From an uncultured archaeon (lineage in GTDB: Archaea; Asgardarchaeota; Lokiarchaeia; Sigyniarchaeales; SOKP01): 54,462 nucleotides of DNA. The translations under genes and the position numbers were made by a program. Location: NCBI GenBank assembly GCA_964583985.1, contig CAZOYD010000019.1, forward strand, positions 1 through 54,462, written 5' to 3'. Position 1 is the stretch's first letter. Every line of letters starts with the position of its first letter. Under the pieces are notes generated by a model. It was not told the DNA's origin. It did no database searches and was given only the letters and a program-made list of their open reading frames with translations. This document shows positions 24,933-50,831 of the stretch, piece by piece.

Positions 24933-25054
24933 TGCAGGGAAGGGGATTTGAACCCCTGTAGACCTATGTCAATGGATCTTGAGTGTGGTTAAAAGAAGGA
25001 TAAGAGCCCCTTCCTTTATTTGTCCACCGCCGTTGACCGCTTGGCTATCCCTGC
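24933..25054 (-). tRNA. tRNA-Leu (CAA) with an intron at about 32/33 (24983-25021)
   Basis: GCAGGGA/TCCCTGC acceptor, long variable arm, CAA at 24979-24981, GTGG/CCAC BHB helix. Confidence 0.9.
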
Positions 25055-35496: not shown

Positions 35497-35665
35497 GCCT
35501 CGGTAGCTCAGTTAGATAGGGCAGAGCAACGTTTCGGTGTGCTAGGCAAAGTAGAGCACTCGGCTTAAGTAATGAAATTTTCATTATTTCCGGAAGTTAA
35601 CCGAGCGGTCGCATGTTCGATCCATAAGATCTTCGATATCCGAAGACCTGGAAAAGCCCGGGGCG
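35497..35665 (+). tRNA. tRNA-Asn (GTT) with three introns (~18/19: 35516-35550; 33/34: 35566-35595; 63/64: 35626-35655)
   Basis: Removing three hairpin inserts gives a 74-nt cloverleaf: GCCTCGG/CCGGGGC, GCTC/GAGC, CTCGG/CCGAG, GCATG/CATGC, G73. Confidence 0.85.
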
Positions 35666-35818: not shown

Positions 35819-35953
35819 TGCTCCCGCCGGGATTCGAACCCGGTTAATGATACAGAGCGAAAAGATCTGTATTGTCGCCAGGGTGAAAGCCTAGTATGCC
35901 AAGCCCTTTCTTCTACATAGAATGAAAAATTGGCCGGACTACACTACGGGAGC
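35819..35953 (-). tRNA. tRNA-Glu (TTC) with two introns (21/22: 35900-35929; 48/49: 35844-35873)
   Basis: GCTCCCG/CGGGAGC acceptor, TTC at 35885-35887, BHB-like junctions. Confidence 0.9.
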
Positions 35954-42885: not shown

Positions 42886-42986
42886 TGGACCTGACGGGAA
42901 TTGAACCCGTGACCTCTTGAGTGCAAGTTTCGCCTATTAAGTTATACACTTAAGAATCAAGCGATCTGCTACTGATCTACAGGCCC
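42886..42986 (-). tRNA. tRNA-Ala (TGC) with an intron at about 30/31 (42929-42957)
   Basis: GGGCCTG/CAGGTCC with G3:U70, TGC at 42923-42925, CGCT/GGCG BHB helix. Confidence 0.9.
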
Positions 42987-43114: not shown

Positions 43115-44605
<1,491 letters not shown>

Positions 44606-50724: not shown

Positions 50725-50831
50725 GCTTCCGTAGTGTAGTCCGGTCAATATTATCCTTAAACTTCTTTCGGAAAGACTAAGCATGCGAGGTTCTCACCCT
50801 CGTGACCCGGGTTCGAATCCCGGCGGAAGCA
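50725..50831 (+). tRNA. tRNA-Glu (CTC) with an intron at 21/22 (50749-50780)
   Basis: GCTTCCG/CGGAAGC acceptor, CTC at 50793-50795, GGTC/GACT BHB helix. Confidence 0.92.

Follow-up and report, generated by a model that had tools for sequence, protein, structure and literature searches.

Background

The tRNA genes most like the one analyzed here come from other Asgard archaea. In the Atabeyarchaeia and Freyarchaeia, 92-95% of tRNA genes are interrupted (Valentin-Alvarado et al. 2024, PMC11291895), and the main text of a more recent preprint (Goswami et al. 2026, 10.64898/2026.10.13.758758) reports up to five inserts per gene, D-arm inserts that are systematically missed, and two paralogues of the tRNA splicing endonuclease (EndA) in most genomes. 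That main text focuses on the Jordiarchaeia and Atabeyarchaeia (Freyr-/Jordiarchaeaceae), gives a median of about 0.9 inserts per gene for other families, and does not name the Loki-type lineage. The endonuclease of Asgard archaea is reported to be of the (αβ)2 type, with an L1 insert that confers broad substrate specificity (Kaneta et al. 2018, PMC5829648).

Outside the Asgard archaea, comparable genes occur in the Thermoproteales, for which 'a maximum of three introns' per tRNA gene and relaxed bulge-helix-bulge (BHB) motifs have been on record since 2007-2008 (Sugahara et al. 2007, 2008; reviews PMC4033280, PMC4090602), and in the red alga Cyanidioschyzon merolae and cryptophyte nucleomorphs, whose tRNA genes carry two or three short BHB-dependent introns in the D-, anticodon- and T-arms (PMC3728597; PMC4090602).

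Here a further gene of this kind is described, from a stretch of 54,462 nucleotides (termed the window) that makes up positions 1 to 54,462 of contig CAZOYD010000019.1 in assembly GCA_964583985.1 of an uncultured archaeon. Judged from its sequence and from comparison with its relatives, the locus at window 35497-35665 is a real tRNA-Asn(GUU) gene in four pieces, belonging to a Loki-type Asgard (Promethearchaeota) archaeon. Like the multi-intron genes described in the main texts of PMC11291895 and 10.64898/2026.10.13.758758, it has an Asgard host, several short non-canonical introns of the BHB type, a D-arm intron that software misses, a T-arm intron with a good motif and two EndA paralogues in the same genome. 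Heavily interrupted Asgard tRNA genes carry at least two inserts of at least 10 nt, with a D-arm insert missed by standard annotation; the window gene has three inserts of 30-35 nt and goes uncalled by ARAGORN and Rfam. Multi-intron Asgard tRNAs having already been published in 2024 and 2026, the gene is a confirmation and an extension of that work rather than a discovery, although neither the gene, nor its intron positions, nor the allelic series to which it belongs is described in the main text of the 2024 paper or of the 2026 preprint.

With the Thermoproteales the locus shares up to three introns, with BHB or relaxed BHB motifs, at non-canonical sites, as well as, by prediction for the window's genome, a broad-specificity (αβ)2 endonuclease with an L1, or Crenarchaea-specific, loop (PMC4090602, PMC4033280). 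The Thermoproteales, however, are a different phylum, and the relatives of the window gene are Asgard, so that it is not a member of that group. Moreover, the sites that a review of the Thermoproteales names are 3/4, 20/21, 22/23, 25/26, 29/30, 30/31, 45/46, 53/54, 56/57, 59/60 'etc.', and neither 33/34 nor 63/64 is among these named examples (PMC4090602). Thermoproteales introns also recur in nearly identical form across tRNA genes, whereas no significant copy of any of the three window introns was found elsewhere in the genome, which thus gives no sign of recent transposition. The algal and cryptophyte genes, for their part, are eukaryotic nuclear or nucleomorph genes served by an endonuclease of other composition, and there is no evidence of common descent.

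Methods

Relatives of the gene were collected in two surveys: a BLAST search of 40 related genomes, and a scan, covering one genome per prokaryote species, for an exact pattern describing exon 3, which demanded that positions 34-58 be uninterrupted and which yielded at least 80 contigs. Loci were aligned to the 74-nt spliced sequence using a gap model that is blind to splicing motifs. A few of these alignments are imperfect: L039 and L052 have misplaced 3' ends; genes called as interrupted at '28/29' have their inserts in the part of the D-arm that the 22/23 intron occupies, in some cases with the 22/23 core; and several 22/23 introns can be placed 2 to 6 bases further on by the aligner.

For an intron bounded by cuts after bases x and y, the BHB geometry used here is one in which exon bases x-5 to x-2 pair with intron bases y-5 to y-2 (the central helix), each cut lies within a 3-nt bulge, 3' of its second base, and an intron-internal helix starts from x+2 and y-6. 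The register test applies this geometry to the homology-defined junctions of the relatives and counts a motif as present when at least three central pairs and at least four inner pairs form.

Results and discussion

Anatomy of the gene and its spliced product

The gene lies on the forward strand and, unspliced, is 169 nt long, with four exons and three introns. Exon 1 (35497-35515) supplies tRNA positions 1-18, that is, the 5' strands of the acceptor stem and D-stem and the D-loop up to G18, and exon 2 (35551-35565) supplies positions 19-33, comprising the remainder of the D-arm, the 5' strand of the anticodon stem, C32 and U33; both were delimited by the spliced, motif-free alignment and a cloverleaf check. 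Exon 3 (35596-35625), which was delimited by the exact-pattern scan as well, supplies positions 34-63: the anticodon GUU, the 3' strand of the anticodon stem, the variable loop, the 5' strand of the T-stem, the T-loop, and C61, A62 and U63. Exon 4 (35656-35665), again placed by alignment and cloverleaf, supplies positions 64-73, namely G64 and C65, the 3' strand of the acceptor stem and the discriminator G73; no CCA is encoded in the DNA 3' of it. Between these exons lie intron 1 (35516-35550; 35 nt) in the D-loop at position 18/19, with a junction fixed by the intron-free relatives L014, L086 and L040; intron 2 (35566-35595; 30 nt) at 33/34, immediately 5' of the anticodon, placed by a BHB scan, by folding and by covariation among relatives; and intron 3 (35626-35655; 30 nt) at 63/64 in the 3' strand of the T-stem, placed by a BHB scan, by relatives interrupted at the same site and by covariation. 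In tRNA numbering, none of the three is at the canonical position 37/38.

Once the introns are cut out, 74 nt remain, which ARAGORN calls as tRNA-Asn(GTT). All 21 stem pairs form (20 Watson-Crick and one G·U), and the conserved bases are all present: U8, A14, G18 and G19, A21, U33, the TTCGA start of the T-loop, C61 and G73. An earlier note on this DNA, made from the letters alone, had proposed a three-intron tRNA-Asn with introns of 35, 30 and 30 nt, none of them canonical; the comparative alignment and the cloverleaf bear this out, and all three junctions that it claimed agree with the presence and absence of introns in the 76 aligned relatives listed. The interrupted gene, furthermore, is identical letter for letter in contigs of four separate salt-marsh metagenome runs, and it is therefore not an assembly artefact.

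The unspliced locus receives no call from ARAGORN, with or without its intron mode, nor from Rfam. Its genome is a 3.8-Mb archaeal draft of 31.7% G+C in 138 contigs that is scored 100% complete. The earlier note had asked whether this is the genome's only Asn tRNA: no second Asn gene was found among the 138 contigs by BLAST with 26 diverse mature Asgard Asn sequences, by a structural scan of the whole assembly for a GUU anticodon arm together with a T-arm, or by the locus search, and the window locus is apparently the organism's sole tRNA-Asn gene. Asn decoding would thus rest on a gene that is invisible to ordinary finders, and annotation pipelines would report tRNA-Asn as missing.

Relatives and recurrent intron sites

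In the BLAST survey, 13 of the 23 other genomes belonging to the genus proved to contain the locus, and their patterns of interruption vary widely. The titles of the contigs (at least 80) that contain exon 3 all read Promethearchaeota, Promethearchaeia, Hod-, Hermod- or Thorarchaeota, or 'uncultured archaeon'; a taxonomy check established that the Promethearchaeota of NCBI are the Loki-type phylum of the Asgard kingdom. Among the matches listed are 76 distinct, well-aligned genes. Six of these lack introns, 23 carry a single one and three carry two; three introns occur in 30 genes and four in 14. The same positions are interrupted repeatedly among the 76: 33/34 is interrupted in 44, 59/60 in 36, 63/64 in 29, 22/23 in 24 and 18/19 in 17. 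Hence position 63/64, which the earlier note did not recall as common, is no rarity within Asgard archaea, being used by 29 of the 76 tRNA-Asn genes among the matches listed. Because orthologues carry from zero to four introns, they form a natural series for the study of intron gain, loss and sliding in the closest prokaryotic relatives of eukaryotes.

Uninterrupted relatives are especially informative as to the junctions. ARAGORN calls both L086 and L040 as tRNA-Asn, and they are identical to the window's spliced sequence at 70 and 69 of 74 positions, respectively; the four differences from L086 amount to two compensatory pairs, G-C to C-G at 6:67 and U-A to C-G at 28:42. A relative of the same genus, L014, lacks both the D-loop and the anticodon-loop insert, and its D-loop reads AGCTAGGTA, which fixes the boundary of intron 1 as AGTTAG | ... 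| GTAGAGC. This boundary had been proposed as the least certain of the three, and it was right: intron-free relatives have the D-loop AGYTAGGTA, and AA|G stands directly 5' of GTAGAGC in all 17 relatives, among the matches listed, that have an 18/19 intron. The exact three-site layout of the window gene is found also in L077, L021 and L080, the first of which (from a Promethearchaeota metagenome-assembled genome) has a precursor identical in sequence to that of L002, a locus from the window's genus.

Other arrangements were encountered in the course of these comparisons. Eight relatives (L049, L055, L030, L023, L037, L059, L060 and L097) have 60-nt inserts at 63/64 that consist of two 30-nt hairpin units, and which probably represent one intron nested in or adjoining another. 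L072 (JARRLT010000199.1) contains two tRNA-Asn-like genes, on opposite strands and about 500 nt apart, with different T-loop inserts. In two metagenome runs a contig joint skips 35517-35595; it probably derives from a relative with other introns.

Splicing motifs

The motif of intron 2 has a central helix with four of four pairs, TCGG at 35560-35563 pairing with CCGG at 35590-35593, its bulges are CT|T and AA|G (exactly the core that the earlier note had set out for the 33/34 junction), and its inner helix has 10 bp (35567-35576 with 35580-35589). The central helix of intron 3 has three of four pairs (U59-A, C60-G and C61-G, with an A58·A mismatch), bulges AT|A and AA|G, and an inner helix of 2+6 bp around a 5-nt loop. 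For intron 1 the central helix again has three of four pairs, two of them wobbles (G15-C, U16·G and U17·G), with bulges AG|A and AA|G and an inner helix of 3+3 bp. The outer, exon-exon helix is absent from all three, which are accordingly of the relaxed, HBh' form. Given three of four central pairs in introns 1 and 3 and an outer helix in none, an enzyme of broad specificity would be needed. Its three relaxed motifs, which lie in the D-loop, anticodon and T-stem and differ stepwise in quality, make the gene a clean substrate, validated by comparison, on which to test the Asgard endonuclease.

When the sequence is scanned by itself, chance BHB candidates arise within the same 200 nt whose scores equal those of the true motifs; a scan of this sort is thus not decisive on its own, and the proof has to be comparative. 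Among the matches listed, the homology-defined junctions carry an in-register BHB in 95% of the relatives at 33/34 (n = 41), in 95% of those with an intron of at most 45 nt at exactly 63/64 (n = 21), in 83% at 22/23 (n = 24) and in 59% at 18/19 (n = 17). When both junctions are moved by 2-4 nt these figures drop to 0-11%, and when the intron is shuffled, to 0-2%; specifically, both controls give 0% at 63/64, and shuffling gives 2% at 18/19. The 3' bulge AA|G occurs, again among the matches listed, in 17 of 17 genes at 18/19, in 39 of 41 at 33/34 and in 17 of 21 at 63/64.

Covariation points the same way. All four positions of the 33/34 central helix are paired in each of the 39 distinct relatives among the matches listed, and exon base 28 covaries with its intron partner (C-G in 34, U-A in three and U·G in two); the first four positions of the inner helix are 97-100% paired, through three to six types of pair. 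The helices of intron 3 are likewise supported by covariation in relatives. In a co-occurring strain variant, seen in metagenome contigs, there are nine differences within introns and only two within exons, the latter constituting the compensating pair 28:42. In the predicted minimum-energy fold, the motifs of introns 2 and 3 (the latter in a 28-nt register discussed below) coexist with the acceptor stem; the intron 1 motif is missing from that fold.

Alternative readings of the locus

The D-arm might be interrupted elsewhere. Intron 1 contains AGAGCA (35523-35528), a copy of the 3' strand of the D-stem, and the same hexamer recurs exactly 30 nt further on (35553-35558), 30 nt being the size of the other two introns. 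The first GAGC (35524-35527) could then be the true D-stem strand, with a 30-nt intron between the repeats and a 79-nt tRNA as the product; consistent with this, some relatives (L054/L010 type) have a junction whose position can shift by 10 nt with no effect on the product. Inspection of the sequence between the AGAGCA repeats, however, reveals no BHB in any register, and none is among the top scan candidates. The product would have a D-loop of 14 nt, which is outside the normal range, whereas splicing at 18/19 would give a 9-nt D-loop, AGUUAGGUA, and intron-free relatives have a 9-nt D-loop that corresponds to the end of exon 1 joined to the start of exon 2. In L021, L080, L030 and L097 the upstream AGAGCA copy has decayed to the point where it could not form a D-stem, and yet the gene is otherwise intact. 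Together with the invariance of AA|G before GTAGAGC in the 17 relatives with an 18/19 intron, these observations make a D-arm interruption between the repeats very improbable, and intron 1 is taken to lie at 18/19.

The failure of standard tRNA finders to make any call at the locus could also mean that it is a decaying pseudogene, the inserts being junk that is never removed. Against this, no other Asn gene was found in the assembly, whose completeness is scored at 100%; its exons are nearly invariant across many genomes while the introns diverge, tRNA stems and intron helices alike being preserved by compensatory changes; and the same three-intron layout has been kept in other species (L077, L021 and L080). 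We therefore give the pseudogene reading hardly any weight and treat the locus as a functional gene.

A similarly small chance attaches to excision of intron 3 in the alternative register at 35627-35654, in which each cut falls one base inward, the intron measures 28 nt and two extra A residues are left in the T-stem. This register is thermodynamically preferred: it has four of four central pairs (UCCA/UGGA) and appears in both the minimum-energy and the centroid folds. In its product, though, T-stem pairs 49:65 and 50:64 could not form, and uninterrupted orthologues read CCAUGC, with no extra bases. Moreover, it is the 63/64 register that keeps a BHB in 95% of the 21 relatives, as against 0% for shifted registers, and in the close relative L077/L002 the 63/64 register itself attains four of four central pairs. 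The 30-nt intron at 63/64 is accordingly retained.

A canonical 37/38 intron with a UAA anticodon was also considered and is rejected, its central helix being unpaired, a long variable arm lacking and the feature not conserved; the resemblance of the unspliced gene to one with a TAA anticodon, to which the earlier note had drawn attention, is a coincidence, since the first intron bases vary among relatives (CT|A, CT|C and CT|T) and there is no BHB at 37/38, either on inspection of the sequence or among the top scan candidates.

Splicing machinery and proposed mechanism

The genome encodes two EndA paralogues, of 207 and 205 aa, which are 28% identical and each of which contains both Pfam endonuclease domains. 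The first is colinear over its full length with the Aeropyrum pernix and Sulfolobus tokodaii catalytic subunits (E = 1e-36 and 9e-34), and this alignment spans a loop Lys in a KPR motif, the loop being what we take to be the Crenarchaea-specific, or L1, loop, and a His, presumably the catalytic one, in place of which entry 3ajv has Ala. The second lacks the Tyr and His of the aligned catalytic sites, having a Phe and no His there, as expected of a structural β subunit; the first would be the α subunit. An RtcB ligase is encoded as well.

The following mechanism may be proposed. The gene would be transcribed as a 169-nt precursor containing the three short, non-canonical introns, each of which would fold locally into a relaxed bulge-helix-bulge. 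In every case a run of four exon bases, its last base two before the 5' cut, would pair with a run of four intron bases placed likewise relative to the 3' cut, and an intron-internal hairpin would close the 5' bulge. A heteromeric (αβ)2 endonuclease would then cut at six sites, and RtcB would join the four exons into the 74-nt tRNA. The cutting and joining themselves we infer from sequence. With this qualification, window 35497-35665 is very probably a functional, and apparently the only, tRNA-Asn(GUU) gene of its genome, from which introns at 18/19, 33/34 and 63/64 would be spliced by EndA and RtcB.

The earlier note had argued that an ordered path of refolding and splicing is likely to be needed, partly in view of a decoy GAGC in the D-loop intron. 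Nothing in the window gene demands an obligatory order, since each of the three motifs is local, none overlaps another, and the minimum-energy fold accommodates two of them alongside the acceptor stem, that of intron 3 in the 28-nt register. Certain relatives have a different arrangement: in ten four-intron alleles (L046, L048, L067, L087, L033, L034, L078, L088, L090 and L100) the introns at 59/60 and 63/64 are separated by an exon of only 4 nt, CCAU. In 10 of these 10 alleles, the 63/64 central helix draws on the final bases of the 59/60 intron upstream of it and has one pair more while that intron is present, and in 7 of the 10 the outer helix of the 59/60 intron grows from 3 to 5 bp after removal of the 63/64 intron. 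This suggests that in these relatives the 63/64 intron would be cut before the 59/60 intron.

Probable intron sliding and a possible mobile element

The GAGC of the D-loop intron is indeed present, as the earlier note had observed, but the alignment reads it as a fossil rather than as a decoy that calls for ordered refolding. From the alignment of D-arms, the 18/19 introns of 30-35 nt are homologous to 22-nt introns at 22/23 in other species, the two having in common a core, GAGCA(C)CG..UCGGUGUGC. In addition, the 18/19 form carries about eight 3'-terminal bases by which GUAG is re-created in front of AGCAC. An intermediate form (L054/L010), whose junction can slide by 10 nt, retains an intact upstream copy of GUAGAGCAC; in other genes this copy has decayed to varying degrees, as it has in that of the window, which also has a 5-nt insertion. 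The intronic GAGC is thus best read as a former strand of the D-stem that intron sliding would have left behind.

A further observation concerns the T-arm in a congener. The tRNA-Asn of L003 (1-1720, reverse strand; corresponding to G006:C200), and likewise that of L070, has introns of the window type at 18/19 and 33/34 but a 59/60 intron in place of the one at 63/64, and the 59/60 intron and a new 3' exon are followed by an insertion of 1.38 kb. In L003, 1,382 nt past the 3' end of the gene, a second copy of exon 4 begins, with a 63/64-type intron before it and the same flank after it. The inserted DNA has a single ORF, of 422 aa (L003 178-1446, forward strand, i.e., opposite to the tRNA-Asn), in which PHROGs profiles recognize a winged-helix tail and two to three HNH-endonuclease modules (E = 3e-16 and 2e-12); it has no Pfam match. 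The insertion looks like a homing-type element that would have entered the T-loop with its own cassette of an intron plus a 3' exon, in which case it would have displaced a window-like 63/64 intron and exon 4 by 1.38 kb downstream in L003 and L070. Such an HNH element could explain the swapping of T-arm introns; it occurs once among the approximately 80 loci listed.

Taken jointly, the two processes would account for the window intron at 18/19 as having slid from a 22-nt intron at 22/23, with GUAG re-created, and for T-arm introns as being exchanged by a 1.4-kb multi-HNH element that enters the T-loop with a 59/60 intron and a new 3' exon cassette. This joint scenario is offered tentatively, the odds being somewhat against its holding in both parts. 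If true and general, it would provide a concrete route for the arrival and turnover of archaeal tRNA introns, a matter that the 2026 preprint leaves open.

Other tRNA genes in the window and genome

Over the whole genome ARAGORN reports 22 tRNA genes and Rfam 26, and many of the calls are 100-135 nt long; multiple introns probably conceal about half of the tRNA genes to be expected. Next to the tRNA-Asn gene, at window 35819-35953 on the reverse strand, is a tRNA-Glu(UUC) gene with two 30-nt non-canonical inserts, one in the 3' strand of the D-stem (about 22/23) and the other where the variable loop meets the T-stem (about 47/48), which ARAGORN miscalls as tRNA-Ala(ggc) with one intron. Also on the reverse strand, a 16S rRNA gene (43116-44604) is followed by an intron-containing tRNA gene at 42886-42986 (ARAGORN: Lys(ctt), with a 29-nt intron); no 23S rRNA gene was detected within the 54-kb window, so that the rRNA genes appear to be unlinked. 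Finally, the locus at 50725-50831 on the forward strand receives conflicting ARAGORN calls, namely a 71-nt tRNA-Glu(ctc) or a tRNA-Ser(act) with a 17-nt intron, and that at 24933-25054 on the reverse strand is called as a 122-nt 'Leu(caa)' with an intron; both are probably further interrupted tRNA genes.
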